This document shows, piece by piece, positions 11,321 through 63,570 of a stretch of 64,000 nucleotides of DNA. The stretch is from Schmidtea polychroa (lineage: Eukaryota), in contig CM097887.1 of NCBI GenBank assembly GCA_044892525.1, positions 13,330,001 through 13,394,000 of the forward strand, read 5' to 3'. Under the pieces are notes generated by a model. That model made no database searches. It saw nothing but the letters and a program-made list of their open reading frames with translations, and was not told the DNA's origin. The stretch's first letter is position 1. Each line of letters starts with the position of its first letter. The position numbers were made by a program, and so were the translations under genes.

Positions 11321-11442
11321 TGTGTGAAAAGTATTTCACAGTGCGTGTGTCCAAATTACATATTACGCAATTTATGATAAATAAAGGAATTTTTTAGGAT
11401 TTTTCATCACTTTTATATACCTAAAATTTTAAATTGAACAAA

Positions 11443-30990: not shown

Positions 30991-33397
30991 TGTTTATTTA
31001 TCGATTATGTAAATAATAAGTTTGTTTAAATATTCGTTATTCAATTTTAAATTTCAATAAAGATTATAATGGATAATATGTTCTGTTTTATGGTAATTAA
31101 TTAAAAGAATTTACATAAAACTGGGCAATTTCGCCACACAGCAAGAACTGTTTGTAAGCTACACTCTGCCCATTGTGGTTCACACACACGACTAATCGCA
31201 TTTTTTCGCTTTTTTATACATTATTTATAAAAATATAATTTATATAATAAATATATTAAAATGATAAATTAATATGAGTTGCTAAAAGTTAAATTACAAT
31301 TTTAAGATATCTTTGTAAAAATTGGATTGCAACACCAGATTTTCTTACATTACATTAGCTTAGCCGGACAAAATGCAATTAAATGATGTTTTTAAATAAT
31401 TATTCCAATTTCCAAAGGTTTTTATCAAATTCACTTGAAAAGGGTAGTGCCGAAAATTCGTGAATATCAAAAACGAACTTAATTATATTAATTATAGTAA
31501 GATATATACAATTAACGGTAATATTTCCCAGCTGCAAAAGATCTATAAAATAATACATAGTTCGTAAAGCTCGATTTGTTAAAAAATAACCAAACCACTT
31601 AATTTCGGTATTTATGATTATGGAAATTTTACAGCTTCAATCAAATATTTTCTAATTTTTTATTTCTAATTTGATTTGTTAAGAAATTTGTTCAACTATT
31701 CTAACGCAAGAAAATCTAAAATGCAAAGGCATTAATAGTTCAAAGTTCATTTTACAAAATCTAACAAATCAGACATTGGTCGATTCTTTTTTGCTAATCT
31801 ATAAAATAAATATTTTTGTAGTTATCAAAATTTCATTTCCTCTTACTTTATCGATTGATTTTGAAATAATTTTTGGTATGTGACAACGAAAACAACATCT
31901 TTTTTTTTAAATTAATTTTTTAATTAATAATCATTCATATTGCGTTTGGAAAAAAGGATTTTCAACGTTTTAGCAATCCGATAAACGATTACTTTTTTGT
32001 CCTCAAATCGACACGTCATTTTTTTTCACTTTCAAGTTCAGTGACATGAGTTTTAACTTTTTTCTTAACTTTTCCAATAAAGTTTAATAAATCTGACTGC
32101 CTTTACATTTTTAATGGGTAAATTTATTATGCAATTATAAAAAATAAATTGCTAAACATACATATTAGGATACGTGTATGCGTAAATCATCTTAATAGGC
32201 GAAATTTGCTTGACTGGGATTTTAAATCGTTCTGTACTCTGTATGATACAGAGAGACCAGTAACTTGCTCTCTAGCATTCCGTCTCATAATCGAATCTGT
32301 TTCCTGAAGTACAACTCTGAACTTGATTTATCCTTAAGATTTAAAACTTCAAACTTATCAATTTTAGAGTTTCTTTTGAATTAATTTGATACATGTAGAA
32401 TTCAGAGTTACTGTAATGTTCTTAAATTATTCATAAATGTGCAAAATGTTGTGAACATTTGAATTTTGAATGTTTTTAAATAGTTTGAGTGCTAAATTGA
32501 AGGTATGTGGATTGTTGTTGTTTTCAAAAGTATAAAATAGTTAAACTAATAATCTAAATAAAGCTGATTTAAGAATTTTTGAAAATATTTCTTTAAAAAG
32601 TTTCAAACTGAAAAATAATCGATTATTTAAATAAAATTTACATTTTTTAAAATTAATAGAAATGTTGTAATTTGTTTATTAAATTTATTTTTAGTTTTTC
32701 TATCATATTTGATAATGAAAGTAAAACTTGAAAATATATTGTGAAATGTATATTTGAGTGGTGTTTTTAATGAAAAAAATCATTGCTATATTTATTTAAT
32801 TATGTATGGATAATATTAATTATATTCTTTTTTATTTCTAAGTAAGGGTACGTGACGTCTGTCCATTTCGTTTAGCGTATGTCGCGCTTGAAAATGATAT
32901 AAAGAGACTATATAGCGATAATTTACCATAGTAAATTATCGCTATACAAATATTGAACAAAAACAAAAAAATCGATAAGAAGAATTAGAAATTCAAAGAT
33001 AAGAAAACAGAAAAACAGAATATTTACAGTCGGAAGTCCTGCTAAGCACCTATTAAAAAGCCATTCACAAGATTACTACAAAAGAAAAGGAAAACATATA
33101 ACTCTACTAGTTAATATATCAGTACAATATTTTAAAAATCGGGAACTTCAAAGTTAAAGAAAGAGGTCGTATGATAGATATATTTTTGACGCTAAGCAAA
33201 TTCATCCAAAAATTAATCGAAGAAATTTCAAGCTCAAGATTCTTTATCGAATCCTTCACCTCTATTATATAAATAAATTCGCTATTTGCGTTGGATCTTC
33301 GCAGTCAACTGTTCTGCAAATTCTGATATCATATCTATTTTCTGCAAGTAGGTAGTTATGTGCACTCTAGATCCATGTGCACTCTAGATCCAGATAC

Positions 33398-33437
<40 letters not shown>

Positions 33438-33994
33438 AAACCCCCCCCTACTTTTTTTTTTTTTTTTTTAATTTTTTAAAAGACCCCCCCCCCCATATTT
33501 TTTTTTTAAATTTAAATTTTTGTTTTAATTATCGATTACGTAATAATTTTATTTTTTGTTTTAATCATCGATTACGTAATAATTTAAAATTTTTTTAAAA
33601 CATCGATTACGTCATTGATTTTAATTTTTTATAAGAATTTTTTATGTCATTATACTTGAAATTTAATTCTCTGTTAAATGAGACTATGATGTAATCAAAA
33701 TTCTGAAATTTCATTTTTAGTACACGATTTTTAAATTTACACATCTTTTTAAACAAATTGAGATATTTTCACTCAAACAATATATAGATAGAATTTTAAT
33801 CTCTATAAAATGACATCAATATTTACTTCAAATTCATAATCATAACACCTTAAACAATGTATTTTTCAGCCAACTTTTACATACACACATATTTTCAACT
33901 TTTAAAAAATACAAATTAATCATCTATACTTAACTCATAGTAAATAATTATATTAAAAGACATATTAAAAGATGTATTAAAAACTAAACATTTA

Positions 33995-34468
33995 TTAAAA
34001 TCCCAGAGAAATTCGAGCACTATCTAATTTCCAAATCGGTGATATGACATCTTTCTCATCCATTTTATATCCCTGTATTGAAATATTTACAAACCAGCTT
34101 TCACCATCTTTATATTCAATTTCTTCAAAGGCATCATGAAAACGAGAATTTCGATTGTTGATGATTATATTTCCATTGCAACTTAGATTCTTATTGATTT
34201 TCCCCAACACTTTATTTACTGCAACAACATCTTCTTTTGTTATATGAGCAATGAAACTTGAATATTGCGACTTGATCAATTTGACTGCATTTGAGAATTT
34301 ATATGGAATTTCGTCTACCAAGAAATATATCTTATGGTTATGATACATTTGTACTGGTTTCACATCATTCTTGGCATGCTTCGTCTCAGTTATTTTCTTA
34401 ATTGGGCTTGTTTCTTTCAATAAATTAGAAAATGTTTTCTCACCAAAAACGTTCTTCTTGGATTGCAT
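33995..34468 (-). CDS. 157-aa TIR-encoded protein, left copy (unknown function)
   Basis: Translation identical to 47214..47687; ATG start, upstream TATA box, AATAAA overlapping the stop. Confidence 0.8.
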   Translation of the reverse strand: MQSKKNVFGEKTFSNLLKETSPIKKITETKHAKNDVKPVQMYHNHKIYFLVDEIPYKFSNAVKLIKSQYSSFIAHITKEDVVAVNKVLGKINKNLSCNGNIIINNRNSRFHDAFEEIEYKDGESWFVNISIQGYKMDEKDVISPIWKLDSARISLGF

Positions 34469-34505
34469 TTTTTAAAAATAATGACTATGATGTCATTTTA
34501 TCTCT

Positions 34506-34513
34506 CTTTTATA
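34506..34513 (-). promoter_or_regulatory. TATA box (TATAAAAG) of the left TIR gene
   Basis: Consensus TATAWAAR ~40 nt upstream of the ATG. Confidence 0.6.
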
Positions 34514-34826
34514 CTTGTGTATAACCAATCAAATGAATGCATTTGTATTGCAAACAACATGCATGTGTCATTGACCTTCGTGTGTGACCTTTGTATGTGA
34601 CCTTTACATTTGTGACCTTTGTATGTGAGTCATACATGGTTTGCATATGTATTGCAGATGTATTGCAAATTAGTTAATTAAAACGTGTACTAATTAGTGT
34701 GATATTAAAAATATTATACTAATACATGTAACATAAAAATACTATAACAACATAAAAATAGTGTACTATCACAAGTAACAATATAAAAATTTTGTAACGA
34801 TTAAAAATAGAATGAAAACAAATTTT

Positions 34827-37800
34827 TTATATCATAAAATTTATTAATTGACAACCATCATCATTTGGAAAATGAGGATGATATTGCAAATCTTCATCTG
34901 GATCAACTATGGGCAGCAACATTTCTTCATCAGAATCATCAGCCATAACCATACCACCCCCCCTATAATGACCATACGCATAACTTTTATTTTTAAGTAC
35001 CCAATTGCGCTTATCGTCAGCATTAGTTAAAGCCCTCTTATTATTTTTAATACTGAAAAGTTGATGGTTTTTACTCGTTATCCTAAATTGTGGTACTGTA
35101 TAAATCTCATTATTATTATAACAATTCAGATACGACTGATGAGTTAGTCCAGTATCTTTCATTGTGACCCCCTTCGCTTTCATACATCCCTTACTACCCT
35201 TCATGCTATAACATTTTGGTCTTAAAAATATCCATTCATCATATCCAAGACCTTTGCTTTCATCTTTAAATTTCCCTATTACAGAGTCAAGGTTTTTTGA
35301 ATATAATGAATGTGTTGGCTCGTAATTAGAGGTATCTAATAAATTATCCCTTATCATTGCGGGTAAAAGAGAATTTAATTTGCAATTTTTAATTTCCAAA
35401 AAGAACGAATCTGTATCCCCAGCAACTATATTAATTTTACAATTAAATTCTATACGATATTTTTCTAAATCAATGTACTGAAGTTGGTACATACGAAGTT
35501 TTGATAAATCCAAAACTGATTGACCAATATAACTTGGTCTATTTAAACATATTAAATCTTTTCTTAATAGAACAGATATTAAGTCGTCATCGATTTTAGT
35601 AGTCCTTTTGAAATTAGGTTTAGAACAATATGTTAATACCTTTTGGGCTGAATTGCAAAGTCTTAAATTAATTCGTTTCTTTAGGTTTTCGACAGTCTTA
35701 CCGTATAGACTGTTGTTTAATAGTTTAAAATAATTTTTATCTAATGTGTTTGTTGATGATGCCCTAAGTTGTGTGTTAGTATCTATATAATTTTTAAATA
35801 TTGATGACTGTTCAAATTGTATAGCGCGATGAATTTTAGTGACCTTTACCCCAATATTTAGATAAAGCTGGAGAAGTCTCCAATGAACTACATAATTCTT
35901 TTTAGGATAGTGGGTAAGCATCAACTTCTCCACTTTGGATCCTGGTGCACAGATCTTTTCAGCTGCAACAGGGAAATCGTCAAGCTTATCATGAATCGAT
36001 TCTGGAATTTCCAAATCGACTTCAACAGTATAACCGAATGTGAGTAATTCCAAGTCAACATTCATACAATCATCCAAAATCTTATTTAATTTTATTTCAT
36101 CGTTAATCCACTTAAAATTACCATCTGGTAGTTTCTGGCTAAGTGCCCAACCATATAGGTTGTTAATATCTATATAGAGCAACTCTGTGTTTTCATCTGA
36201 TTTTACGTAATGTTTATTAACAAATGTTAATCCCCCTCGAATCCCACCCTCAAAGAAATTATAAATCTCCATGTCTTGGATCAACTCAATTGGATGATCT
36301 AAAGTCATGAGTGCAGAGTTCCATGACATACCGGGAATGCCTAAAAAGTTTAAGGGTTCCAATCTGTTATGAGCTATTGATTTTGCTCTAAACTGTTGGA
36401 AATAGTCCGCAAGTAAAAAGACATCTAATTTTAAATATATCATCATGTAATCCAAAAGTGAATTACAATTATGGTCATCCCAAATGCGCTGAGCCATATC
36501 ATATTCTACTTCAGTAACACCATCCCAAATTGGAGGTAATTGGGGAGTTCCCTGAAGCACTTCTAAACTAGTTGCAAAATCATATGGGAATATGCCTTTA
36601 CTATTAACAATTACTCCGTTAAATTCAGAATTAGTCAATGGAAATGTAGTTAATGTTTGTACAGCATTTTTTAAGGAATCGTTAATAAATTGACAAGAAT
36701 CGATAAATTTTATAGTTAATCCATCAATTCTTGCATATAAACTTAAAAATTTTTCACTAGTTATAGGAATACAATTAATATTCCATGATTTAAATTTACC
36801 TAAGCCAAATTTGAGAATATGATGGAGATCATATCCTCTCAAATTATGAAAAATAACTGGTAAAACCGGTCTAATTCTTCGAGAAAGATTACAAGTTGAG
36901 CAAGCTGCACCTAAATATTTACCCGAAAAATGGTCATGATCTCTTACTGGATTTACTAAAGTTTTCTTACACAAATGACAATTTACAGCCGAAGAAAAGT
37001 TTATTTTGTCAATACTACTAAAAAACATCATTTTCCTATATCGTGTTTCAAAATATGGAGCCACTATTTGCTTACCAATTTCTTCAAGTTCATGAAGAAA
37101 CTGTTCAACACAATCCAATCCTATAAAACTTTTATAAAATTTATCCCCTGTAAAATTATTTATAAAAACAAAACCAGCTGAGATTGGTAAATGTTTTTGA
37201 TAGTATTTATTATCTTTAGGTAAAATTGCCTCAAAGTCGGCATAAATAACAAATGGAGGAGTGACAATCTTTGACCAATTTGTAAAACTAAGATATTTAT
37301 CTTCGGGTAATGTAAAGAGAGTGGTCCCTAACTGATTTTTATCACACAAACCCTTGTGTCTCATGAAAGAATTAGGATTTCGAAAACCATTTAAGCATCT
37401 CGAACACCATTTACTACAAATCCTAACAGCAGTTACACTAGAATCGTTACAATTCAAAAGTCTATCAAGATTAGTAACACCTATGTAATGATGTGTCAAA
37501 ATCTTCTAACAAAATTAAATTAATTGTTGTCCCCCCAATAACTTTAGATCGATAAATTATGTCAACATAAGGATGTTTCATAACTTCTTCAGTATTCTTA
37601 ACATCATTTAATATATTTTCGTTATAAGTTAAAACATTTATCGATAAACCAGGGTTTTGGGATTCAAATTTAGAAATATTACAAAGGCGCATAGGGAGAT
37701 CTGCAGGATCGAATTTTAATTCCGAAGTATTATAATTATATGGCTTAGATCTATTGGTACTAATACTATTATATTTCAAAATAGATAAAATACTATATAG

Positions 37801-38303
37801 GAAGCATTCATCATTTGTATTTTTAACATTAACAGTACATTTTTTATTTAATAATGTTTCTGGTGTAGGAATATATCCACGGCCAGTTAATCTGGATATT
37901 TGCGAATATTTTGTTATTATAAAACTAATATATTCAATTTTATGTATAACCCAGTTGCTTCCCTTTTCGTTAACTTTAATTATTTTTTCATTTAATAAAT
38001 CAATACCATCTTCTAAGAAGGTATCACTCATGGGTCTAGCAGAATTTGAAATAACGAATGATTGAAATTCGTCATCTTTTACAAATTCCACTTTCAAACA
38101 AAATTGAATTTTTATTGAACCCATCTCGGATGAAACTTTATTTAATTCATTTATTAACTGAGTAGGGATCGAAACTGTTTTTAAATTTAAGGATGAAACA
38201 TCCATTTTAACTTCTGCGTGTGTTTTATTTAAATCGAATATGGTTTCAGGTTCAAGTGAACCACCTTGTTGATTAATAATGACTTCTGTAGAAGTTGATG
38301 TAA

Positions 38304-38369
<66 letters not shown>

Positions 38370-38742
38370 AAAGTGAATAAGAGTTAACTATCAAAGGCAT
38401 GACCTCATCATCAGAGTCTGAAATAACGATAAGATCTTTTTTAACAAATTTAGAGGGTTTTAGATTAGGTAAATTAATTTTTCTTTTATTATTTACATTA
38501 GGCTTATTATTATTATTATTAGTACTTGTAGTATCATTATTATGATTTATAGCGGGATTATAGGTATTGGAAATATTATTTTTTAATAAATTAATAAGGT
38601 CTTTTTTCTTTAAATTATACTGAGTTAAATGATCCCTATGTTGATGATAAAACTCCATGTATGTTACAGTCTCGGGGTTCATACAAACAGGGCAAATAAA
38701 AAAGATGGTATGATTATGGCTATGTTTGTAATATTTTTCCAT
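34827..38742 (-). CDS. polB: Protein-primed family B DNA polymerase (N-terminal/TP region, OTU-like protease, exonuclease with EndoVII-like Zn finger, polymerase), interrupted by a 2-nt frameshift at ~37490
   Basis: YIDINNLYGWAL, KLLNNSLYGK, AGDTDSF, CHLC..RDHDH..G..C..CN; ORFs 34827..37499 and 37471..39000 join to ~1305 aa from the ATG at 38742 if 2 nt are restored; the true start could lie in the N-gap. Confidence 0.93.
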
Positions 38743-39325
38743 TATGAAATCACAATCATCATGTAATGAACTATTACAATAATTTTGNNNNNNNNNNNNN
38801 NNNNNNNNNNNNNNNNNNNNNNNNNNNNNNNNNNNNNNNNNNNNNNNNNNNNNNNNNNNNNNNNNNNNNNNNNNNNNNNNNNNNNNNNNNNNNNNNNNNN
38901 NNNNNNNNNNNNNNNNNNNNNNNNNNNNNNNNNNNNNNNNNNNNNNNNNNNNNNNNNNNNNNNNNNNNNNNNNNNNNNNNNNNNNNNATATTTTTATCAA
39001 AAAGGTAATTTTACTTAAATATATTTAACCTATTACATAATAGTTTAAACATACTTAATGCAAAATATATTTACCCTATTACGTAATAGTTTAAACATAA
39101 TCAATACAAAATATATTTAACCTATTATATAATAGGTTAAATATATTTTCAATCAAAATAAATTATTGATAAAAATAAATTTAACTTGTTACATAATATT
39201 TCATTATTATTATTATTATTCAAAGTACTATATTATAATTATTGTATTTAAAGTATTAATTATTATTAAAATAAAAACATTAATAAATCTTTTAATAAAA
39301 CCTTATAAAAATTCATTAAAAATCT

Positions 39326-39704
39326 TTAAATAAAAATGAAAATCTTACATGTAACTTTTCTTTTTGATATTTTGCAATCATTTTTTCCATATGCAGTACT
39401 GCGCGCAATCAAATTGTTACCATTATTATTGTTATTTGTACTTGACTCGTTCATATTTCGTCCATTTATAATGCATCCATTCATGTTGTTTATAATAAAA
39501 TCTAAAAAGAATAAATAATTATAAATTTAATAATAATAACGAAATACCATTTGGCATGTTTTCACTGTTATTGTTAGATCTTTTGTTGAAATTACGATTA
39601 AGACCTATAAATTATATCAATAATAATGACAAATAAATAAATAAATAAATCTTACCATTCTTGACACTGTTTCCGCTTTGGCTTCCTTGATTATTTCTTG
39701 ACAT
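39326..39704 (-). CDS. Three-exon, 93-aa Asn-rich protein (exons 39704-39656, 39604-39548, 39501-39326), not in the ORF track
   Basis: ATG, then GTAAG..TTATAG (51 bp) and GTATTT..TTTTAG (46 bp) introns give a continuous frame MSRNNQGSQSGNSVKNGLNRNFNKRSNNNSENMPNDFIINN...; same structure in the second copy at 11443. Confidence 0.7.
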
Positions 39705-40024
39705 TTTGTTGAGTTTAAAATTTTAGGTATATAAAAAAGTGATGGTATATTTTTAAACATTGCTTTATATATCATAAATTGTGTAATATGTATTCACCCA
39801 ATAGAAATTGAGAGTATTACATGCACACGCACTATGAAATATAATTTACACACAATGTGAAATACTTTTCACACATTAGGAAGCAAAACTTACACACATT
39901 ACAAAATAAAAATTTAACACAAACTAAGAGAACATGATTAATCATGCATTTAAACTGCAATCTTAATGCATATGAGTAATAATAACAAAATTAATAATAA
40001 TATAATTTTTAATCAAAAACTTTA

Positions 40025-40444
40025 TTAATTTTTTAAATAATCTAACACAGCAATTAAACAATTTTTGTAAGCACAATTAGAATGATCACGGTAAGGACAC
40101 AAGATATTATCAGGAAAATATTCTGATAATTGGATTGAATATTTTATTAATCTTAAATTTGGGAAATAATTTTTCAAAACTGTAAGTTTATCTTGATCAG
40201 TGACATAGAAAATTCCACTTGTATCTTCTACATCTCTCAATATACATGTTGGACAAAACGAATCTTCACCTTCATACCATTCCAATCGATCTGAATTTTC
40301 ACGTCCAGCCCAAAATGGTAAATCATTAAATAACCAATACTTTGGGCGTAAAATATTATTTACATTCATAATACATAATTCTTTAATAATTATTCCACCA
40401 GCATAATCATTATAACCTACAAAGTCAATAAAATAACAAGACAT
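40025..40444 (-). CDS. DEDD-fold / Maelstrom-like small protein, probably catalytically atypical
   Basis: N-terminal IDFVGY...IIKELCI and C-terminal CPYRDH..CAYKN; homologous pseudogene at ~9756-10160. Confidence 0.55.
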   Translation of the reverse strand: MSCYFIDFVGYNDYAGGIIIKELCIMNVNNILRPKYWLFNDLPFWAGRENSDRLEWYEGEDSFCPTCILRDVEDTSGIFYVTDQDKLTVLKNYFPNLRLIKYSIQLSEYFPDNILCPYRDHSNCAYKNCLIAVLDYLKN

Positions 40445-40476
40445 TTTTATTAATAAGATTTATTAAACTACATCGT

Positions 40477-40858
40477 TTATACATATAACATTGAATTTAG
40501 CCATGCAAGGCAATGTTGACCACATGTTTGAGTCATTGGATTTTGATAACGAATTTTATTATACAGAAGGGGTTTACCAACTGTTTGTAGTTTTGTTATC
40601 ATTATATCTGGATAATAATATCCCATCGGATCAAAAACATGTATTTTATCAGGTTTCACATATATTGCAATCCAATGTTCTCCTTCAAGATTTGATGATT
40701 GAGTATTGACGACTATAGCTTGGTTTGCGTTCAGATAGGGGATTTTATCTAATGGGAATACTCCAGTAAACTGATTCCCCAACAACATTTTTCCAATTCG
40801 ATTAACCTGAATAGAACTAATCAAATAAAATTAATTATTAATTAAAAACTTACTCCAT
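40477..40858 (-). CDS. Adenain-like cysteine protease (Maverick PRO) with a short 5' intron
   Basis: GVFPLD, GEHW, FDPMG, QNP..QTCGQHC catalytic motifs; ATG GA|GTAAGT...GATTAG|T TCT gives MDSIQVNRIGK (37-bp intron), or ATG 40874 with a 47-bp intron gives METIYYGVNRIGK. Confidence 0.9.
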
Positions 40859-40923
40859 AATAAATTGTTTCCATTGTTTAATTCATTTATACTACGTTTA
40901 AACCAATACAGTTTGAAATACTT

Positions 40924-42147
40924 TCAAACCAATACTGATCGACTTGCAGTAATTTGTAATTCTCTTTCGAAAACTCCGTATACTATTACATAAACCGATT
41001 CCTCGAGTGATTTATTAAACTTTACACTCAATTTTAAATTTCCTTGTTGTGGTAATTGACTTTGATTCAAATCAAAATCTGGAGACAAAACAAATGTAAA
41101 GAATGGATATTTATCTTTAAAATCTTCAAGTGTAATCCCACAGTTCATGTTTTTATCCAAATACCCCAGATTTCTCACAATACTTTGCATATACGTTGTA
41201 GTATAATCATTTGTGTCAAAGTTTTGTGTATATGTTTCTCGATAGTCATTATTTTTGGCTAAAGTGATTGATGTAATATCCAAATGTTTAAAGATTGAGC
41301 TGGATTCCTTATATGTTCCCTTAAATTGAGATTCAGTTTGAAATGCCACTAAAACGAAATTTGGTAATCTTTTGTCAATAAATAATTGTTCCTTGTAAAA
41401 TGACGATGAACCTTTACTGATTGTAAAGTCGACAGTTTCTTTACTTCTAATTGGATATATAGCATTTTTAGAATTTAACCCTATTTGATGCCCTGCTAAA
41501 ACTGATGGTTCAACTCGAACTCTGCGAATCATTAATTTTGCTTCCAATACCTTTATCTTTGGTTCATCTGTTAGCGAATGTATACTGAATGATGATGGGT
41601 TTCTTTTCAGTGTTACATTAACATTAACTCCTGGAAGTAAATATTTTGGTTGATCCATAAAATCTATTTGCAATGACGAACATAGGGAAACTAATTTAGA
41701 ACCGGCAATTAATGCTGTTCTTTCCTTATCAGATGGAATGTAACCCATAGGAGCCAGACAAATGTTTTTACTATCTCCATTATAATTTAAAATAGTTTCA
41801 ATTAAAGCTTTTTGTGTATATCTTCCGTTTCCACCTTCAATCTTTTGACTATTGAGTCCAACAATAACATCACTAAAAAGTGTATGGAACAAGTAATTGT
41901 TAGCTTTTGCATCTGAAGTAACCGGTAATTCCTTTCCATTATTATTTGTAACCTTTAATTTAATGTAGAGTAATGTATCATTCAAATCGAGATATTCAGT
42001 ATGAGAACCAGTTATTTTGAATTCAATATCGCTTTTATTATCAACAATTGAATTAAAGGGGAATACGTCTTCAAATGTCGCATATTCTATAACCGCCTGA
42101 GGAGTCGGTCGATCAAAAATACATAATTCAGTTTTTCCACAAATCAT
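40924..42147 (-). CDS. Major capsid protein (double jelly-roll, Maverick PY/hexon-like)
   Basis: KTELCIFDRPTPQ..IE, IEFKITG..EYLDLNDT, PFFTFVLSPD match the Maverick MCP pattern; position next to PRO. Confidence 0.88.
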   Translation of the reverse strand: MICGKTELCIFDRPTPQAVIEYATFEDVFPFNSIVDNKSDIEFKITGSHTEYLDLNDTLLYIKLKVTNNNGKELPVTSDAKANNYLFHTLFSDVIVGLNSQKIEGGNGRYTQKALIETILNYNGDSKNICLAPMGYIPSDKERTALIAGSKLVSLCSSLQIDFMDQPKYLLPGVNVNVTLKRNPSSFSIHSLTDEPKIKVLEAKLMIRRVRVEPSVLAGHQIGLNSKNAIYPIRSKETVDFTISKGSSSFYKEQLFIDKRLPNFVLVAFQTESQFKGTYKESSSIFKHLDITSITLAKNNDYRETYTQNFDTNDYTTTYMQSIVRNLGYLDKNMNCGITLEDFKDKYPFFTFVLSPDFDLNQSQLPQQGNLKLSVKFNKSLEESVYVIVYGVFERELQITASRSVLV

Positions 42148-42530
42148 TTTTCGAATATAGTTCCACGTCCTGTCATTCGTTTGTTTATATACCTTCGATG
42201 TTTTCTTCGCTTAGGCTGTGGTTCAGACTCTTCAGATTCTGATGCTTCATTTGATCCCATTACATTTGGTAATGAAGAAATCACATCTGGTAATGCCTCT
42301 TTGAATTCAGATATGGCATTGGATTTTAAAGATGGTAATATTTTTGCATTATTCATTATTACATCTTTAGCTGTTTTCATACCAAAATTTCCTATACGTT
42401 TAAGAATAGGAAGAGCAAACCGACCAATAGTTTTTAACCATCCGGATCCATATTGTTTGCCAACAAAATATGGTAATTCGCCACCAGTTTGACTATTGGC
42501 ATAAAGAGAAACTATATCAGGATTAGACAT
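42144..42530 (-). CDS. 128-aa putative virion core / membrane-lytic protein (adenovirus pVI-like layout)
   Basis: QTGG and QYGSG motifs, amphipathic segment WLKTIGRFALPILKRIG, basic NLS-like PKRRKHRR, C-terminal MTGRG. Confidence 0.65.
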   Translation of the reverse strand: MSNPDIVSLYANSQTGGELPYFVGKQYGSGWLKTIGRFALPILKRIGNFGMKTAKDVIMNNAKILPSLKSNAISEFKEALPDVISSLPNVMGSNEASESEESEPQPKRRKHRRYINKRMTGRGTIFEK

Positions 42531-43539
42531 CTTGTTTTCTAAAATGTAAAGTTACGTGTGTTTTTGAATCGTTTGCAAATCGGATTAAATTTCCGCTATC
42601 ATCGCGTATATTAATTTCTATATTGTTTATACATGTTCTCCCAACTGGTAAATACATAGGATTTTCTATTTGTATTTGCACAACTTCATCTTGCTCATAT
42701 TTCTTAATCCACACCGCTTTCAGAAGAGGTACCAGTGAATCACCAACATTTATCGGATCAATAATATCGCTATAGATGAACATTTGTTGATGATGATTAA
42801 ATATTTTTCCTTTACGAACTCCACCAAATTGTTTGTCATTATATAATTGTTTTTGTAATCCAAATGTGTTGACCAAGTTTTTATCAAATATAACTTCTTT
42901 AATGTTTTCACCGAGACTGAATTTGAAGACATTTTCATTCAGTTCAACAGACTTGAAAATATGGGGGCAATTACTTGTTAAATAGTTGGTTAAATCTTCA
43001 AGCTTCTTTATGTATAAATCATCAGTAAATGTGAAAACTGAATCTTGTAAACAATTGTACGTTAACTTCATTCTAATTACATTATTCATAATGCCATCAA
43101 CATACGGCGGAATTACAATTTGAAATGTATCAGTGTGACTTATAATTGTTGGTTCAGGAACTCCTAATCTTTTTACGCTTGCATCTTCAAATGTTATCTC
43201 GAATGGATGGTAATCGCAACAAATATTTAAAACTCCCTTGGTAATATACATGTAACAATCATTATTTAATTCTTTTATTGTCGTTTCATCATCTTCGGGT
43301 TCAATAACATAAAAGCTGCTAACTGATTTCGATGCAATTTCTTTATATTCAATCTTAGAATTACTGTAAAATGGAAATGTATTGTACACAAATGTGTAAT
43401 CAAGCAAAGCAACTTCCCACATGTCATGCAGGTAAATGGGATTTTGTAACTCAACGATAAATTTACTAGCCTCATTATTCGGATGAATTAATGGACAGCT
43501 ATTGCTTGGTAAAATAGTGAAAAAATTGTTTCTATTCAT
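42523..43539 (-). CDS. Minor capsid protein (penton, Maverick PX)
   Basis: FFTILPSNS..HPNN..F.V.L...WEVAL; C-terminal FIYSDII.P..VGD..PLL, YLPV, IEINIRD, LHFR. Confidence 0.88.
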   Translation of the reverse strand: MNRNNFFTILPSNSCPLIHPNNEASKFIVELQNPIYLHDMWEVALLDYTFVYNTFPFYSNSKIEYKEIASKSVSSFYVIEPEDDETTIKELNNDCYMYITKGVLNICCDYHPFEITFEDASVKRLGVPEPTIISHTDTFQIVIPPYVDGIMNNVIRMKLTYNCLQDSVFTFTDDLYIKKLEDLTNYLTSNCPHIFKSVELNENVFKFSLGENIKEVIFDKNLVNTFGLQKQLYNDKQFGGVRKGKIFNHHQQMFIYSDIIDPINVGDSLVPLLKAVWIKKYEQDEVVQIQIENPMYLPVGRTCINNIEINIRDDSGNLIRFANDSKTHVTLHFRKQDV

Positions 43540-44555
43540 TCAATTTGAGATGCTGATATCCAAGTTGGGTTTTGATATCCATGCCATTTGACGTAATATT
43601 GTTTATCCTTACCTTTATATTTTGATTTAAGAATTTTTTCAATTCTAAAGACAGATGGTGTCGGAATAACTTGCAGTTCCTGTTCGTAAAATTTACCCTG
43701 GATTTCATTATTATCAATATCTTTAATAACATACATAACGGGACTCTGTTTCGTATTAATCTTCGATATTTGAAAGACTTCGTCACTCCAGTTGTTGTCA
43801 AAATTTTTAATGAATGGTGAAGCCGATATTTTACTTATTCTAACATGATCACCAACTTTATATTTAGGTTTCTTAATTTTTGTTACATCTTGTTGTGATA
43901 ATAATATTTTCATACTATTTTTAGATGTTACATCAATCGGTCTCATACCCTTTAGACCTCCATGTTCGGAATGATTGTAACTATGAATTATTTTCGGTAA
44001 AACATTTATCCAAGTTTTGTTACCTTGATGTACAAAATATTTTTTCAATCGATCTCTTAATGTTCTATTAAACCTTTCCACATGAGCAGCTTTGAATTGT
44101 GAAAAAACAGAGTAATGATTTATTCCCTTTAGATTTTCTTTAACTTTGCTATTATAAAATTCTTTACCCAAATCAGTTTGTAAATTATCTGGTTTACCAT
44201 TTTTAAACATTGTTTTTATTGCAACAGCCATTTCACTAGCAGATTTGGTTTTCAATGGTATAGCTCGAGCAAATCTACTAAAGACATCAATACATGTCAA
44301 AATATATTTGTAACCCTTATTAATTTTAGAAAATGGAATCATTTCCATTAAGTCCATTTGCCATAAATCATTAATACCATATGTTTTATATGCTCTTGTG
44401 GGAAACCGTTTCAACATTGGCTTGTTTAAATTGTATGCCAGTTGACTCGACAACCATTTTTGAGTCTCCTTTTTTGATTTGGGTACTTTTTTCTTTAACT
44501 TTTCGACTCCACCGAAACCGGCTGGATCTTTTGGGTTTGTCCATATCTTCTCCAT
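43536..44555 (-). CDS. Retroviral-type (rve) integrase with C-terminal chromodomain
   Basis: WQMDL, LQTDLGKEF, HVERFNRTL DDE triad; FRIEKIL...YYVKWHGY..PTWI chromodomain. Confidence 0.95.
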   Translation of the reverse strand: MEKIWTNPKDPAGFGGVEKLKKKVPKSKKETQKWLSSQLAYNLNKPMLKRFPTRAYKTYGINDLWQMDLMEMIPFSKINKGYKYILTCIDVFSRFARAIPLKTKSASEMAVAIKTMFKNGKPDNLQTDLGKEFYNSKVKENLKGINHYSVFSQFKAAHVERFNRTLRDRLKKYFVHQGNKTWINVLPKIIHSYNHSEHGGLKGMRPIDVTSKNSMKILLSQQDVTKIKKPKYKVGDHVRISKISASPFIKNFDNNWSDEVFQISKINTKQSPVMYVIKDIDNNEIQGKFYEQELQVIPTPSVFRIEKILKSKYKGKDKQYYVKWHGYQNPTWISASQIE

Positions 44556-44653
44556 TACAACACGATGATTTAAAATTTAGAATAAGGTTTGGTAAATGTC
44601 CCATAGGTAATTGACCCATTGTTTATGATGATGATATTAAAATAATTCAACGT

Positions 44654-44986
44654 TTATGAAGGCTCACCTAATAAACCAGATCCACCTAATAAAGATAATG
44701 CGATTGGTATCAAAGCTGATATAAACCCCCCTTTCTGTTTGTATATAATTTTTCGCATTATACGTTTATTTTTTGTATTTACTAACGATAAAAGTGATTT
44801 TTTATGGTTTTGCAATACAAGTTTTTTCGCTTTACTAATGTCAACATTGCCACGCACAACATTAACAATAATTTCAAGCAAATCGTCCACAACAAATTGT
44901 GGGAATGATTGTAAAATACTTGTTCTTTTCATGAGTGGTGCTTTTATCAATGCATTAAAATATGGTATACTACGTTGTAATTTCAT
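44654..44986 (-). CDS. 110-aa conserved Maverick small protein with QKGGF motif and hydrophobic tail
   Basis: LLEII.NVVRGNV..HKKSL..QKGGFISALIPIAL resembles the small ORF common upstream of Maverick integrases. Confidence 0.7.
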   Translation of the reverse strand: MKLQRSIPYFNALIKAPLMKRTSILQSFPQFVVDDLLEIIVNVVRGNVDISKAKKLVLQNHKKSLLSLVNTKNKRIMRKIIYKQKGGFISALIPIALSLLGGSGLLGEPS

Positions 44987-45019
44987 TATTGAAATTTATT
45001 TTTTATCGTTTAACTTTGT

Positions 45020-45190
45020 TTATAATTTAATCCATTTTTTAGGTGTTTTGATTGATCTTTTCTTCAACGTTTTCTTTACAGATTTCTTTACTATCTTTTT
45101 TATAGATTTCTTTACATGTTTCTTTACACGTTTCTTCTTCACTTTGACTAATTGATTATCATGTTTAATTAAAACTTTCTTGAACCCCAT
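45020..45190 (-). CDS. 56-aa Lys-rich basic protein (histone-H1/protamine-like), below the ORF-track cutoff
   Basis: MGFKKVLIKHDNQLVKVKKKRVKKHVKKSIKKIVKKSVKKTLKKRSIKTPKKWIKL*: 23 Lys, 2 Arg, 1 Asp; fills the gap between ATPase and the 110-aa gene on the same strand. Confidence 0.75.
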   Translation of the reverse strand: MGFKKVLIKHDNQLVKVKKKRVKKHVKKSIKKIVKKSVKKTLKKRSIKTPKKWIKL

Positions 45191-45214
45191 TTTTTATTAT
45201 AATAGATTCATAAT

Positions 45215-45838
45215 TTAATTTTGTTTATAAACTGTTACACCATCTTTATTAAAAATATCTGTCCTAATACGTACATCATCCATGCATTGCTGAGTAAAAT
45301 CAAAGAATAAATATCCATGGGGTATTTTGGTTGCATCTTGAAATGATTCAATTAGAAAGTTACGATTGTTTGGATATGCTTGTCTTGCAATGAAATCAAT
45401 AACAGTTGCATCCCTCGGATTTTTGAAAATAACAAGATATTGAACATTCAAGTTCCGAGTTCGATGACTCCCACCCTGATGAAACAGATTTTGTGTTATA
45501 AAAATAACTGTTACACCATGATGTCGAGATATTTTTGTAAATAAATTATTAAAATCTTTTTCTTTGTTAGCTTCTTGATATAAATCATCAATAATAATTA
45601 CATCACCCTGTTGTAATCTAGATGACCAGTTTTTATCAAATCCTTTTATTATTGTCATTTTTAATTTACAGAATTGTTCTTGCGTCAAACCATGTTCGTC
45701 ATCAGCACCCCTATGCCAATATATTTTATTGAATTTTGACTTGAACATTTTTGATTGTAATAATTTACAAACAAATAAAGTTTTACCACTACCGCTTGGA
45801 CCTACAATTTGATAAACAGCATCATTTCTTAATTCCAT
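45215..45838 (-). CDS. A32/FtsK-HerA-like genome-packaging ATPase
   Basis: Walker A GPSGSGKT, Walker B IIIDD, SRH..VTVIFITQNLF. Confidence 0.93.
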   Translation of the reverse strand: MELRNDAVYQIVGPSGSGKTLFVCKLLQSKMFKSKFNKIYWHRGADDEHGLTQEQFCKLKMTIIKGFDKNWSSRLQQGDVIIIDDLYQEANKEKDFNNLFTKISRHHGVTVIFITQNLFHQGGSHRTRNLNVQYLVIFKNPRDATVIDFIARQAYPNNRNFLIESFQDATKIPHGYLFFDFTQQCMDDVRIRTDIFNKDGVTVYKQN

Positions 45839-45923
45839 TTTAAAAAATTAGTTATATATATTAATATTGTTTATATTTGTTTTAATTCATCAGTTTACTT
45901 GATGAAAAATTATTTGAAAAAAT

Positions 45924-46388
45924 ATGATTAGTAATATAAATTATAAAGGTAGATTTGATGTATCTCATATGGAATTTCCAAAAGGTAAACCACAACAAAT
46001 TGTTGACAGAAGCGGTAAACATTCAATAATATTTTTCAAGTCAGGTAAATGTCGAATAATGGGATGTAAAAAATCGATCAAAGTTGAAGATTTAAAATAT
46101 GAAATCAAGGATTTACAAATTCAATCGATTACAGTTACTGCTGATATTGAATCAAATGTTATTTTAAATGATTTATCAAAGTATATGAAATGTATTTACG
46201 AACCAGAAATATTTCCGGCATTAAGATATATAAAATACAATCCAATGTGTGTTAACATATTCAATAGTGGTAAAGTAGTTATACTCGGTATAAAGACATT
46301 GGATTATCATTTACTTGTTTATAAAATTATTAAAGATATTAAATCAGTAATTGATGACATGGAATTTTTAAAATTTTTCCTAAACTAA
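45924..46388 (+). CDS. Compact TATA-box-binding protein (TBP) homolog
   Basis: Two TBP repeats: IFFKSGKCRIMG and IQSITVTADI...YEPEIFPALRY...NIFNSGKVVILG, against canonical IFSSGKMVCTG / IQNMVGSCDV / YEPELFPGLIY / IFVSGKVVLTG. Confidence 0.88.
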   Translation: MISNINYKGRFDVSHMEFPKGKPQQIVDRSGKHSIIFFKSGKCRIMGCKKSIKVEDLKYEIKDLQIQSITVTADIESNVILNDLSKYMKCIYEPEIFPALRYIKYNPMCVNIFNSGKVVILGIKTLDYHLLVYKIIKDIKSVIDDMEFLKFFLN

Positions 46389-46499
46389 AGTTGCAATCGT
46401 CCATGCATGAATCCAATTGGTTGATGGTGTGTATCGAAATAAGTATATATATATATATATACAATAACACTTTAATCATTTATTAAGTACTAGTTGAGA

Positions 46500-46877
46500 A
46501 TGTCAAATTTAACTGTAAATGGTATATTTTGATTATTGCTTTTTATATTTATAATTTTAAATGTTTTAGAAAAAATGATACAGATTCTGATTGGGAAAAT
46601 GGGGGAATTATATCCGAATATTTTAAAGGATCTAATCTATTGGGCACCAGAGATTATTCCATTCAGAATATGGATGTCTACCGGAATAGATTTGAATGTG
46701 GTTTTGTTTGATCACTTGAGGACGTTAGAAGACGATCTTGACCCTGTTGACAGCAGCAAGCCATCAGTATGCCCATACAAATGCGAAGGATGTATTGATA
46801 GAGAGAAGAAGTATAATATATGGATATTAAGGAAAGAGTTGAGAAAAGCTCACTTTTCATTAATTGTAGATCACTAA
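46500..46877 (+). CDS. 109-aa hypothetical protein with a 48-bp 5' intron (exons 46500-46521, 46570-46877)
   Basis: ATG TCA AAT TTA ACT GTA AAT G|GTATAT...TTTTAG|AA AAA ATG joins in frame to ORF 46536..46877; YWAPE motif, CPYKCEGC, AATAAA overlapping the stop. Confidence 0.65.
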
Positions 46878-47049
46878 TAAATGTTTAGTTATTATAATAC
46901 AGTGTTTTCTAATTTTATATTGTTACTTGTGATAGTACACTATTTTTATGTTACATGTATTAGTATAATATTTTTAATATCACACTAATTAGTACACGTT
47001 TTAATTAACTAATTTGCAATACATCTGCAATACATATGCAAACCATGTA

Positions 47050-47110
47050 TGACTCACATACAAAGGTCACAAATGTAAAGGTCACATACAAAGGTCACAC
47101 ACGAAGGTCA
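47050..47110 (+). promoter_or_regulatory. Cluster of AAAGGTCA (x3), GAAGGTCA and TGACTCA motifs upstream of the TIR gene (mirrored at ~34572-34632)
   Basis: Motifs read directly from sequence; they match nuclear-receptor extended half-site and AP-1 consensus; function inferred. Confidence 0.4.
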
Positions 47111-47168
47111 ATGACACATGCATGTTGTTTGCAATACAAATGCATTCATTTGATTGGTTATACACAAG

Positions 47169-47176
47169 TATAAAAG
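47169..47176 (+). promoter_or_regulatory. TATA box (TATAAAAG) of the right TIR gene
   Basis: Consensus TATA ~40 nt upstream of ATG 47214. Confidence 0.6.
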
Positions 47177-47213
47177 AGAGATAAAATGACATCATAGTCA
47201 TTATTTTTAAAAA

Positions 47214-47687
47214 ATGCAATCCAAGAAGAACGTTTTTGGTGAGAAAACATTTTCTAATTTATTGAAAGAAACAAGCCCAATTAAGAAAATAACTGAGACG
47301 AAGCATGCCAAGAATGATGTGAAACCAGTACAAATGTATCATAACCATAAGATATATTTCTTGGTAGACGAAATTCCATATAAATTCTCAAATGCAGTCA
47401 AATTGATCAAGTCGCAATATTCAAGTTTCATTGCTCATATAACAAAAGAAGATGTTGTTGCAGTAAATAAAGTGTTGGGGAAAATCAATAAGAATCTAAG
47501 TTGCAATGGAAATATAATCATCAACAATCGAAATTCTCGTTTTCATGATGCCTTTGAAGAAATTGAATATAAAGATGGTGAAAGCTGGTTTGTAAATATT
47601 TCAATACAGGGATATAAAATGGATGAGAAAGATGTCATATCACCGATTTGGAAATTAGATAGTGCTCGAATTTCTCTGGGATTTTAA
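47214..47687 (+). CDS. 157-aa TIR-encoded protein, right copy (unknown function)
   Basis: Translation identical to 33995..34468. Confidence 0.8.
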   Translation: MQSKKNVFGEKTFSNLLKETSPIKKITETKHAKNDVKPVQMYHNHKIYFLVDEIPYKFSNAVKLIKSQYSSFIAHITKEDVVAVNKVLGKINKNLSCNGNIIINNRNSRFHDAFEEIEYKDGESWFVNISIQGYKMDEKDVISPIWKLDSARISLGF

Positions 47688-48248
47688 TAAATGTTTAGTT
47701 TTTAATACATCTTTTAATATGTCTTTTAATATAATTATTTACTATGAGTTAAGTATAGATGATTAATTTGTATTTTTTAAAAGTTGAAAATATGTGTGTA
47801 TGTAAAAGTTGGCTGAAAAATACATTGTTTAAGGTGTTATGATTATGAATTTGAAGTAAATATTGATGTCATTTTATAGAGATTAAAATTCTATCTATAT
47901 ATTGTTTGAGTGAAAATATCTCAATTTGTTTAAAAAGATGTGTAAATTTAAAAATCGTGTACTAAAAATGAAATTTCAGAATTTTGATTACATCATAGTC
48001 TCATTTAACAGAGAATTAAATTTCAAGTATAATGACATAAAAAATTCTTATAAAAAATTAAAATCAATGACGTAATCGATGTTTTAAAAAAATTTTAAAT
48101 TATTACGTAATCGATGATTAAAACAAAAAATAAAATTATTACGTAATCGATAATTAAAACAAAAATTTAAATTTAAAAAAAAAATATGGGGGGGGGGTCT
48201 TTTAAAAAATTAAAAAAAAAAAAAAAAAAAAAGTAGGGGGGGGGGTTT

Positions 48249-48287
<39 letters not shown>

Positions 48288-48782
48288 GGTATCTGGATCT
48301 AGAGTGCACATGGATCTAGAGTGCACATAACTACCTACTTCTGCAGTATTACTTATTTTTTTGATTAATAAAATTCGTAATTTTATTTAACTGTTATTTT
48401 GCACCTTTTTCTACACAACACGCACCCCGATTGTCCCGCCACATTTTTTAACGGTGATTCTATCGGGTCCTTCAGATCTCCTTACACACGCATGCACTTA
48501 CCAACAAAAATTTATAATATAATCCATATACAACACATATATAATATAATACCATCGAAACCTCCAATCATAATAATTATGTATGGATTTTGTTTATTTT
48601 ATTTATTATTATATGCCAAAATATATTTTTAAAAAGTCGAAAATTAGGTTAATTATTGGATTTTATGTTATTATTACACACCGCAACAATAGCCCAATTT
48701 GAATGTTCTGAACTATAAATCGCAAAGGTTCGTCATAAGTGGAATTAGTAATTTAATGTTTTATTATTCAAGAATTTGAGTA

Positions 48783-61379: not shown

Positions 61380-63570
61380 TAAATTTCCCAAATTTTAAAA
61401 AGCCTTTCAATATCCGAATTTATACACTCATGCAATATAGATTCAAGATTATTATAAACCCAAGTAAAATCGGCATACTGAAGTTTTTGGCTAAGAGCCC
61501 AAACATACAAATTATTAATATCAATATATAATAATTCTGTATTCTCCGAAGTTGAAACATGATGCTTGTTAACAAATGTCAAACCACCTCGTATTCCTCC
61601 CTTATAAAAATTGAATGTTATAGAAATTCAGAGGTTCAAGACCATTGTAAGCAATGGCCTTTGCACGGAATTGTTGGAAATAATCAGCCAAGAGAAATAC
61701 ATCTAATTTAAGATAAGTTAACATGTAGTCCAAAAGATTATTAAAATTCTGCCGAGTCCAAATTTGTTGGGCAGTAGCATATTCATCAACCGTAACACCT
61801 TCACAAATTGGTGGCAATTCAAGTGTAGATTCTAGAATTTCTAATGAAGTAGCAAAATTATAAGGGAAAATGCCTTTACAAGTCATAATAAAATCTTCAA
61901 AAGCAGATGATGTCAAAGGAAGATCCGACAGAGTTTTTACAGCCTTTGCCAAAGAACAATTAACAAATTGCAATTTTTGATATAAGAGATTAATATTATA
62001 AAATTTTTCAGTGCTAGTATGGTCCATATGGATAATATTCAACACCCACGATAGAAAATTTCAAAACACAATCAGTACCAATGAAATTATATTATGATTT
62101 TGTATTTGTGTAGTTGTTAATTAGTAAAAGGCCTGTGGATATTAGATAATGTATTTAATGATGTATTACATCTTTAGTAAAACCGATTCGAAATCGGCAT
62201 AAATTACAAATGGTGGGGTATTAGTTTTCGCAAAATTTTCGAATTGCAAGTTTTTATTTGTAGGAAGAGTGTAAAGAGTCATTCCTATCTGCTTTTTACT
62301 ACACAATGCAACATGTCTATCAAAAGCATGTTGTAATCAAAATCCATTAAGGCAATGAGGGCACCAATTAACTCTTATTCTTATCGAGCAATCTATATTA
62401 GGATGACATTTCATTAAACGTTGCAAGTTGATAATGGCCGTATAATGATAGTTATCACCATCTTCAAGAAGTAGCAAGTACACAGGTATGCTATCAATAA
62501 CTTGGGATCTATGTATAATATCAAGGTGAGGATGATGTGGCACATAAGCATCATCAGTATTACTGTCATTGTCTATAATAATTACATGTTTGTATGAAAA
62601 TACACTTATAGCAAGGTTTAGATGAAGATTTTTTTCCTCAAATTTCAATATGTTACACATTGTCATGGGACAATCAGTTATAGGGTCATAATTAATCTCA
62701 TTCAAGAAACCGGTATACTTGCTCACTCTATTCCAATGATTTCTAATTTGATCATGTTTTAATACAGCAGGTACAATATATAAAAAGCACATATTTTGTG
62801 TATTCTTAATGTTTACTATTGCAGTTTTATTATACTACGATGTTGGTGTTGGTATATATGAATGGCCAGATAAGCGAATAATTGGATAATATTTTGTCAA
62901 GATAAACCCAATTTCTTTAATTTTATTTATTCTCCACCCACTACCGAGATGTGTAAATTTATCTATTTTTTCGTTTAATTTTTGTGACCCTTTAATCAAA
63001 AAATCATCCGAGAAAACAAGTGCTGTATTTGAAAAATAGTTGTACTTAATTTCTCCATCTTTTTCAAATTGGATAAAAACTGTAAATTTTTTTTACAGAC
63101 CCCATCTTGCTTATTTCTAATGCAAGACGGTCCTTAATTTTATCGGTTAAAGATATTTGAATCAATTGATGCTAAGAAACATCCAATCGTAGATTTTTTC
63201 GAGCACCTTGAAACTCGATAGTTATAATAGGATCATCGTCTACATGTAAAGATCCTCCTACTTGATTAATAGGAATACGAGGGGAATCAGCAACATCGGC
63301 TTCATCGTCACTTATAATTATAATCTCTTTTTTAATAATTTTAGTTGCGACAACTTCATTTTTATTTTCTGCAGACCTTTTATTGTTATTATTAATTATT
63401 TTAAGATTTTGCCTATCTTTTTTAATACTTGTAGTGGCGACAACATCATTTTTATTTGCTGCGTGCCTTTTATTGTTATTATTATTAATTATATTAAGAG
63501 ATTGCCTATTAAAGATTTCTTTAAAAATTTCGTTCTTATTTGATAACTGATTTAAATGTGTAGTGTTCAC
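61380..63570 (-). pseudogene. PolB pseudogene of a third, more diverged Maverick subfamily
   Basis: Fragments: IIISDDE..NQVGGSL, NIKNTQNMCFLY, LLLLEDGDNYHY, KGIFPYNFATSLE, DVFLLADYFQQFRAK, LYIDINNLY. Confidence 0.88.

Follow-up and report, generated by a model that had tools for sequence, protein, structure and literature searches.

Polinton/Maverick element of the window

We analysed a 64,000-nucleotide stretch of the Schmidtea polychroa genome (assembly GCA_044892525.1, contig CM097887.1, positions 13,330,001 to 13,394,000, forward strand), hereafter the window, to which all positions without a locus name refer. It contains an element that is a Polinton/Maverick by the features tested, the variant being the structure of its genes (Table 1): the gene for the adenain-like maturation protease (Peptidase_C5, PF00770, E = 1.7e-4) is very probably interrupted, right after its first codon, by a spliceosomal intron of only 37 nt that recurs at the homologous place in 12 of the 16 closest metagenome relatives.

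The element shares with animal Polintons/Mavericks (adintoviruses, polintoviruses) a length of 15 kb, long terminal inverted repeats (TIRs), AG..CT ends and a 6-bp duplication, as well as genes for pPolB, an rve integrase with a chromodomain, a packaging ATPase, the adenain-like protease and a candidate double-jelly-roll (DJR)-like capsid protein; it differs from them in its TBP-like gene. The TIRs are ~1.4 kb long, with a TIR arm of 1315 nt being 99% identical. Pfam searches matched the integrase (rve, E = 1.3e-10, with the chromodomain also present) and the packaging ATPase (Pox_A32, E = 4.8e-6). The capsid-like open reading frame (ORF) has no Pfam match; in an atlas search it reached a feature value of 0.98 to DJR-like clusters and a recognition value of 2099, which is under the tool's mark of 2300. 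Motif patterns for Exo I-III and Pol A-C each occur once and in order in pPolB, which is 50-60% identical to the polymerases of relatives, with no match to PF03175 and no meaningful sequence match in the PDB. The pPolB gene of this copy carries a frameshift near 37490 (region 37470-37500), and its 5' end enters a gap of Ns (38788-38987). An intron between the two pPolB ORFs was considered but rejected, as coding continues there in a different frame. The window further contains a decayed inverted copy of the element and, over ~61400-64000, the remains of a second Polinton family.

Table 1. Coordinates of the element, its gene structures and related copies in the window
Feature	Position	Strand	Remarks
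Polinton/Maverick element	33347..48339		14,993 bp; termini AGTAGG..CCTACT; target-site duplication TCTGCA at 33341-33346 and 48340-48345
Left TIR	33347..34755		holds 157-aa ORF 33995-34468 (-)
Right TIR	46927..48339		holds 157-aa ORF 47214-47687 (+)
pPolB, exonuclease and polymerase part	34827..37470	-	Exo I-III, Pol A-C motifs
pPolB, N-terminal part	37471..38787	-	Cys/His zinc-finger-like motif, Asn-rich; open up to N gap
Putative third Asn-rich intron	38788..39348	-	donor 39348 (GTAAGA); acceptor hidden in N gap 38788-38987; link inferred
Asn-rich exon 3	39349..39501	-	153 nt to phase-1 donor 39348; unspliced stop at 39326-39328
Candidate intron	39502..39547	-	46 nt, phase 1; GTATTT..TTTTAG; donor weak (0.3 bits)
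Asn-rich exon 2	39548..39604	-	57 nt
Candidate intron	39605..39655	-	51 nt, phase 1; GTAAGA..TTATAG
Asn-rich exon 1	39656..39704	-	49 nt, ATG 39704; probable first pPolB exon
TATATAA box	39765..39771	-	ends 60 nt before ATG 39704
Core module	40025..45838	-	no intron found at the 5' ends tested; also holds a 139-aa ORF, a 128-aa ORF, a PW-like ORF and a small basic ORF
Protease exon 2	40477..40816	-	adenain-like cysteine protease; in-frame ATG 40788 is residue 12 in spliced numbering
Protease intron (probable)	40817..40853	-	37 nt, phase 2, GC 11%; GTAAGT..GATTAG
Protease exon 1	40854..40858	-	ATG and two bases
Less likely protease alternative	40807..40874	-	ATG 40874, 21-nt exon, 47-nt intron to acceptor 40807
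TATAAA box	40886..40891	-	ends 27 nt before protease ATG
Candidate major capsid protein	40924..42147	-	core module
Penton-like (presumed)	42523..43539	-	core module
Integrase	43536..44555	-	core module
Packaging ATPase	45215..45838	-	core module
TBP-like gene	45924..46388	+	PF00352, E = 2.7e-15
109-aa gene, putative exon 1	46500..46521	+	22 nt
109-aa gene, putative intron	46522..46569	+	48 nt, phase 1, in frame, one stop; GTATAT..TTTTAG
109-aa gene, exon 2 / 100-aa ORF	46570..46877	+	ATG 46575
Decayed inverted copy	9116..15876	+	83-95% identical by block
Second Polinton family remnant	63550..63760	-	acceptor AG 63731-63730 before pPolB zinc-finger exon

Four short GT-AG segments

The initial annotation had drawn attention to four GT-AG segments of 37-51 nt, two in an Asn-rich gene, one in the protease and one in a 109-aa gene, and these are all present, with lengths of 51, 46, 37 and 48 nt. 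Equally, its statement that three of them keep their splice sites in the decayed copy is borne out, as GT and AG are retained at all three segments covered by that copy (9349-9385, 11492-11538 and 11596-11641; the second is now 47 nt long and ends in CAG). The GC content of the segments is 11-12%, compared to 23-39% in the adjoining exons measured, and their features fit the U2 type, with a RAG-like context of the GT donor and a T-rich tract before the AG acceptor.

A splice score trained solely on 18 introns of relatives was applied to the element's GT..AG pairs with lengths of 33-58 nt. The four segments rank 3, 4, 7 and 10 among 1,428 pairs, and a fifth strong candidate (39348-39302 on the minus strand, 47 nt), absent from the initial annotation, ranks 6. 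Ranks 1 and 2 share a single donor antisense to Asn-coding pPolB DNA and represent a false positive; the pair 38469-38522 (+), antisense to Asn codons, was rejected. In 30 block shuffles, donors scoring at least 20 averaged 0.27 with a maximum of 2 (3 observed, a clear excess), those scoring at least 18 averaged 0.63 with a maximum of 5 (5 observed, a modest excess equalled in at least one shuffle), and those scoring at least 15 averaged 2.2 with a maximum of 6 (7 observed). Because the observed count was equalled at one of these levels and the top donor is an antisense false positive, the motif scores on their own are compatible with chance and provide only moderate evidence for splicing; the strong evidence is comparative. 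No combination of an upstream ATG exon and an AT-rich intron was found at the starts of nine other core ORFs (0/9).

A probable intron at the start of the protease gene

For the protease, we surveyed the best 16 of 79 metagenome protease loci, with six others used as outgroups. Twelve of the 16 carry an intron of 37-43 nt (7-22% GC) after codon 1, in phase 2 and at the homologous place, in the arrangement ATG-NN|GT..AG|T. The remaining four have a plain ATG at this place, as does the intronless L088, the sole locus examined of four from a prokaryote-genome scan. The 12 intron-bearing loci represent eight lineages at 90% protease identity, and pairwise protease identity among the intron-bearing genes ranges from 47 to 99%. 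When the upstream DNA of nine loci was shuffled, the chance of encountering such an ATG-NN-GT was 0.013-0.041 per locus. The intron lengths span all three classes modulo 3 and the interiors align poorly, as expected for spliced introns but not for coding DNA; in nine protease introns, alignment is poor beyond the splice sites, with no conserved interior motif. In all 13 intron-bearing protease genes, that of the window included, retention of the segment leads to a stop after one or two codons. In 9 of the 12 relatives, exon 2 contains no Met before the catalytic His, and in 11 of the 12 there is no Met in the unspliced upstream frame. The position, phase and conservation of the predicted intron and the stop upon its retention are read directly from the sequences compared, and we consider its splicing well supported and very probable.

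Of the two acceptors that the initial annotation had left open for the 37-nt segment, 40817 or 40807, the former is the conserved one. Of the 13 intron-bearing genes, 12 have an ATAAAC/TATAAA box 25-29 nt ahead of the ATG. In the window, the distance from this promoter-like box is 27 nt to ATG 40858, 11 nt to ATG 40874 and 97 nt to ATG 40788, a geometry that favours ATG 40858 with acceptor 40817 over both ATG 40874 with acceptor 40807 and a start at ATG 40788. The 47-nt intron with ATG 40874 was rejected as the main form, given the proximity of this ATG to the box and its loss in the decayed copy.

It could be argued that the four segments are AT-rich spacers or 5' leaders rather than introns, and that the downstream ATGs 40788 and 46575 are used. 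Both ATGs lie in an A-rich context like that of the element's other starts, and AT-rich DNA does yield high-scoring false GT..AG pairs. However, the position, phase and size of the protease segment are conserved in 12 of 16 relatives, most of which have no alternative start, and the box is far better placed for ATG 40858. Furthermore, the structure model of an intronless relative, P0035 (pLDDT 92), which has the adenain fold and matches adenovirus proteinase (E = 1.8e-6), contains a confident helix at residues 3-17, and judging from this model most of this N-terminal helix would be lost with a start at 40788. We therefore regard the spacer explanation as very unlikely overall; only for segment 46522-46569, discussed below, is it a fair competitor.

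The start of the protease also bears on database annotation. Many intronless homologues in the databases have a Met 17-19 residues before the G-V-F-P strand, and the closest homologues either carry F/Y/I/L-rich extensions or start late, which is what ORF calling would produce when it runs across an AT-rich intron. By a rough start rule, 120 homologues comprise 52 canonical, 27 extended (a few of them wrongly so classed), 20 late-starting and 21 other sequences. The earlier suggestion that annotation by ORFs alone misses such genes is supported by these visible mis-starts in the protease family.

Several observations weigh against the protease intron. The in-frame ATG 40788 of this copy is usable and in A-rich context, a downstream Met is present in L016 (residue 9) and in L014 and L024 (residue 29), and an upstream Met stays open in L018. 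In the protease tree, the intron-bearing genes do not come out as a single clade; the intronless L017 is placed beside the window and L016 (support 72), the deep nodes have supports of 26-72, and one outgroup sits in the wrong place. A tree this weak does not demonstrate that the intron arose only once. Finally, no spliced transcript was observed, and none of the sequencing runs recorded as RNA contains this stretch. Contigs of 4 of 12 listed sequencing runs were compared with positions 38988-46926, and among the 15 joints listed for these contigs none falls at any of the four introns. Contigs of run X1 have depth in 29 of 30 bins, intergenic DNA included (X6 covers 4 of 30), and are read by us as DNA, an RNA origin being only a guess. 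For this reason, neither an ungapped X1 contig (40047-40860) that contains the protease intron and seven letters beyond it nor another (39549-40013) that retains the 51-nt segment was used for or against splicing.

Insertion of the introns into integrated, dead copies, either at random or in the manner of introners, is a further possibility, as PMC11957031 reports mostly secondary introner insertion in dinoflagellate Maverick-like elements, and pPolB of the present copy is indeed frameshifted. Yet the same position in nine lineages, with protease identity down to 47%, requires inheritance through replicating elements, and the poorly alignable introns are unlike a single young repeat family. 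For the protease intron, this explanation is already contradicted, and we give it hardly any credence in general.

Asn-rich exons upstream of pPolB

Two of the GT-AG segments separate three Asn-rich exons upstream of pPolB, and the comparison of the two copies (39349-39704 versus 11443-11794) makes splicing of both quite likely. The exons contain no indels in 259 nt, and their frame is open for 80 codons in the decayed copy; the DNA downstream of them has seven indels in 257 nt. One of the introns carries a 4-nt deletion between the copies, which would be tolerable only with splicing. Exons 1 and 2 differ by ~20% versus 3-7% in other coding regions, and the differences in the exons are mostly non-synonymous (25 non-synonymous and six synonymous codon changes), whereas the introns are ~97% identical and, at A/T sites, better conserved than the exons (2 of 82 versus 20 of 181 sites changed; Fisher p = 0.017). 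Such a pattern is in keeping with functional introns set in a rapidly changing peptide of low complexity.

The initial annotation treated the exons as a gene of its own with two introns; the introns are probably real, but the separate gene is probably wrong. Given the phase-1 donor at 39348 and phase-1 acceptor signals in two families, we read the exons, on balance, as a spliced 5' leader of pPolB. All introns of this putative leader are in phase 1. In the decayed copy, an acceptor-like TTCAG (12216-12220), also in phase 1, precedes the pPolB zinc-finger exon, and in the second-family remnant a pyrimidine-rich acceptor precedes the same exon in the same phase and alignment column. Both acceptors fall in a column occupied by Cys in all six ATG-started relatives, with flanking bases that could form a Cys codon.

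Against the leader speaks, first, that the window's own pPolB acceptor would be hidden in the N gap and that the decayed copy has lost donor 39348, with a stop a few codons before the place of the donor. Relatives L009, L013, L019 and L020 start pPolB at an ATG beside the zinc finger, with no leader, and the Asn-rich exons have no homologue outside the window, exon 3 matching the decayed copy only. Just before the gap, at 39017-39165, there are three to four 46-nt repeats with palindromic cores; the decayed copy, too, is interrupted by an N gap at this point. These repeats resemble those before L009's own pPolB promoter. A less probable alternative is that the introns are real and the exons form a separate small gene, pPolB having its own promoter and ATG within the N gap. 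The product would be 93 aa if unspliced at the 3' end; with the nearer AG at 39302, a third intron of 47 nt would give a slightly longer but still short, stop-terminated product. An ATTAAA after the stop at 39326 in both copies would suit such a gene, as would the two direct repeats and TATA box directly before the ATG-started pPolB of L009, alongside the four leaderless relatives and the absence of donor 39348 from the decayed copy. What this alternative does not account for is the acceptor-like signal at the conserved-Cys column in two families of the window, nor the fit between the phase-1 donor 39348 and the zinc-finger acceptor among introns that are all in phase 1.

The 109-aa gene

The fourth segment, 46522-46569, scores well and joins ATG 46500 in frame to the 100-aa ORF. 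However, the length of the segment is divisible by three, it contains only one stop codon, and ATG 46575 is in normal context. In the comparisons made, the 100-aa ORF has no homologue outside the window and the segment no second copy, and no TATA-like box was found before either start (46500 or 46575). Whether this segment is spliced or serves as a spacer appears evenly balanced to us.

Introns in other genes of relatives

Introns in this lineage, as predicted from the contigs, are patchy, biased to 5' ends and present also in a replication gene. In the 5' region of pPolB, L009 has five mini-introns (1687-2243, plus strand) and L013 has four (1580-1993, plus strand), all 41-46 nt long and with open exons between them; the first of them interrupts the zinc-finger motif, where the window pPolB has no intron. 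The polymerases of L019 and L020 are single ORFs. L017 has an intronless protease, yet three high-scoring mini-intron candidates of 40-45 nt lie in its zinc-finger gene (2543-3170, minus strand), a relative of the N-terminal part of pPolB. L020 has a comparable zinc-finger ORF standing alone (6745-7422), and high-scoring mini-intron candidates lie between the protease and the next ORF in L016 (7832-7866) and L021 (2771-2825).

The initial annotation had supposed that 5' introns may regulate late genes. As a general rule this is not supported: capsid, penton, ATPase and the other core genes have no such intron (0/9), and relatives carry introns in their polymerase gene, with which a role restricted to late genes does not fit.

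Proposed expression mechanism

As an overall explanation, we consider it likely that the genes of this Polinton lineage are transcribed by host RNA polymerase II (Pol II) and that some of them have acquired spliceosomal mini-introns near their 5' ends. Pol II would initiate just upstream of the ATG, ~25-30 nt past the TATAAA/ATAAAC box; removal of the 37-nt intron by the host spliceosome, through intron definition, would then join the ATG to the protease frame. Unspliced RNA would end after two codons, making protease output dependent on splicing. At the Asn-rich exons, two mini-introns and a longer third intron would join the leader to the zinc-finger exon.

The introns may persist either through slow loss or through a benefit of a cap-proximal intron, which can aid nuclear export of transcripts and escape from silencing. 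Such an expression or export benefit, or slow loss, is in our view more likely than a dedicated late-gene switch, in which the protease intron would be retained early as a two-codon dead end and spliced late, so that protease appears after capsid formation. A timing switch would account for the immediate stop upon retention in 13 of 13 genes, for the confinement of such an intron to the protease among the structural-module genes tested, and for its maintenance across eight divergent lineages plus the window element. We nevertheless find it unlikely because the stop follows automatically from a phase-2 GTRA donor and 4 of 16 relatives, one possibly nested among the intron-bearing ones, lack the intron; no conserved interior motif is found in the protease introns either.

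A bolder proposal, which we advance tentatively and consider doubtful, is that an entire Polinton clade depends on splicing, with a 37-43-nt intron gating the protease and clusters of mini-introns gained in the 5' region of the polymerase. If so, very short introns would be spliced only in hosts with a short-intron mode and would act as a host-range filter, intron size would give orphan Polinton contigs a readable host tag, and virion maturation could be timed through regulated retention.

Comparison with known systems

Polinton core genes are currently treated as intronless and annotated by ORF finding. In agreement with the initial annotation, intact vertebrate Mavericks are described as having no introns (PMC8097293, citing Kapitonov and Jurka, 2006), and the core genes of nematode Mavericks are intronless, with introns in the cargo (Widen et al., preprint). 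The window protease, by comparison with its relatives, departs from the property of intronless core ORFs, a descriptive one outside the formal definition of Polintons. The cargo of nematode Mavericks (wasp proteases, krma kinases) likewise places spliceosomal introns inside a Maverick, but these are captured host genes, whereas here the virus's own maturation protease and the relatives' polymerase are concerned.

Introns inside Polinton-like elements are also represented by introners, mostly secondary, in dinoflagellate Maverick/Polinton-like proviruses (PMC11957031) and by self-splicing group I introns of 309-376 nt in cryptophyte Polinton-like viruses (PMC12220804). Introners are repeated mobile insertions, mostly post-integration, whereas the window introns are 37-51 nt long, AT-rich and apparently inherited by position.

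Adenoviruses offer a further parallel. Their E2B genes for the polymerase and pTP have a tiny upstream coding exon. The adenovirus protease has a fold related to that of the window protease and is made from spliced mRNAs, the L3-23K transcripts arising by alternative splicing (PMC7851563). However, adenoviruses splice long polycistronic precursors, whereas the window protease has a promoter-like box of its own and a single predicted mini-intron inside the coding start.

In size and placement, the window introns resemble flatworm microintrons, which in Opisthorchis felineus peak at 37 bp, cluster and prefer 5' positions, and which occur in other flatworms too (PMC6530080). The short-intron peak of Schmidtea mediterranea, 45-85 bp (PMC13594981), lies above 37 nt and fits the protease intron less well than the fluke peak does. 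Searches by term in PMC10748475, PMC8502044, PMC3671162, PMC6431247 and the Halocafeteria preprint found nothing on spliced core genes in the text available. The literature searches, which did not extend to Repbase Reports, most subscription journals or supplements, where spliced Polinton genes may be annotated, turned up no account of a spliceosomal intron conserved in the core genes of Polintons.

The presence of an inherited spliceosomal intron in the maturation protease seems to be a departure from the intron-free core genes of Polintons. The transcripts of at least one lineage would be processed by the host spliceosome, an argument for transcription of the virion module by Pol II in the nucleus. 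Proteases and polymerases that look missing or truncated may be intact spliced genes, in which case intact elements are under-counted. With their patchy occurrence among relatives, the pPolB introns provide a compact system in which to study how a DNA virus gains and loses introns. Intron size is a testable clue to host range.

Other genes and surrounding sequences

The TBP-like gene lies head-to-head with the ATPase gene and has homologues in L019, L021 and L023. Boxes of the TATAAAC/TATAAA type occur ~27-39 nt 5' of several other element genes, and none was found before the TBP-like gene. Between the ATPase and PW-like genes, a 56-aa ORF (~45020-45190, minus strand) contains 25 Lys/Arg residues and is possibly a DNA-condensing core protein; similar basic ORFs occur there in L011 and L019. 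The penton-like label (42523-43539) is our presumption from a motif and gene order, and the PW-like label is likewise assumed. The 157-aa ORF inside both TIRs has a weak homologue in L019 (28%), and a stretch resembling endonuclease VII in the C-terminal pPolB ORF (E = 0.0012) is under the Pfam cut-off.

Among the relatives, L018 (158-1827) and L019 (5616-7687) each have two tandem penton-like genes, and the ORF at 222-719 of L019 is presumably ubiquitin-conjugating-enzyme-like. Two ORFs at the contig end of L016 (110-1263), beside Polinton genes, which we take to be MraY-like and dual-specificity-phosphatase-like, may reflect misassembly. L088 (JANOGQ010000345.1) is a Polinton-type protease on a 12.7-kb contig filed in a bacterial metagenome-assembled genome, probably through binning contamination. 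Scans of viral contigs yielded eight distant protease loci (32-34% identity) and no capsid or polymerase matches.

Outside the element, no intron-bearing host gene was identified within the window. The gap between two hAT ORFs (52466-52513) was considered as a host intron and rejected as a frameshift. The other flanking ORFs include pogo/Tc5, piggyBac-like and gypsy-type remnants besides hAT, and a RING-finger ORF (303-629, plus strand; PF13920). Finally, 832-936 contigs matched positions 38988-46926 in runs X2 and X5, the long near-identical ones with a depth of ~130-330 and some variant ones with ~17-25, which points to many young copies plus many diverged copies.

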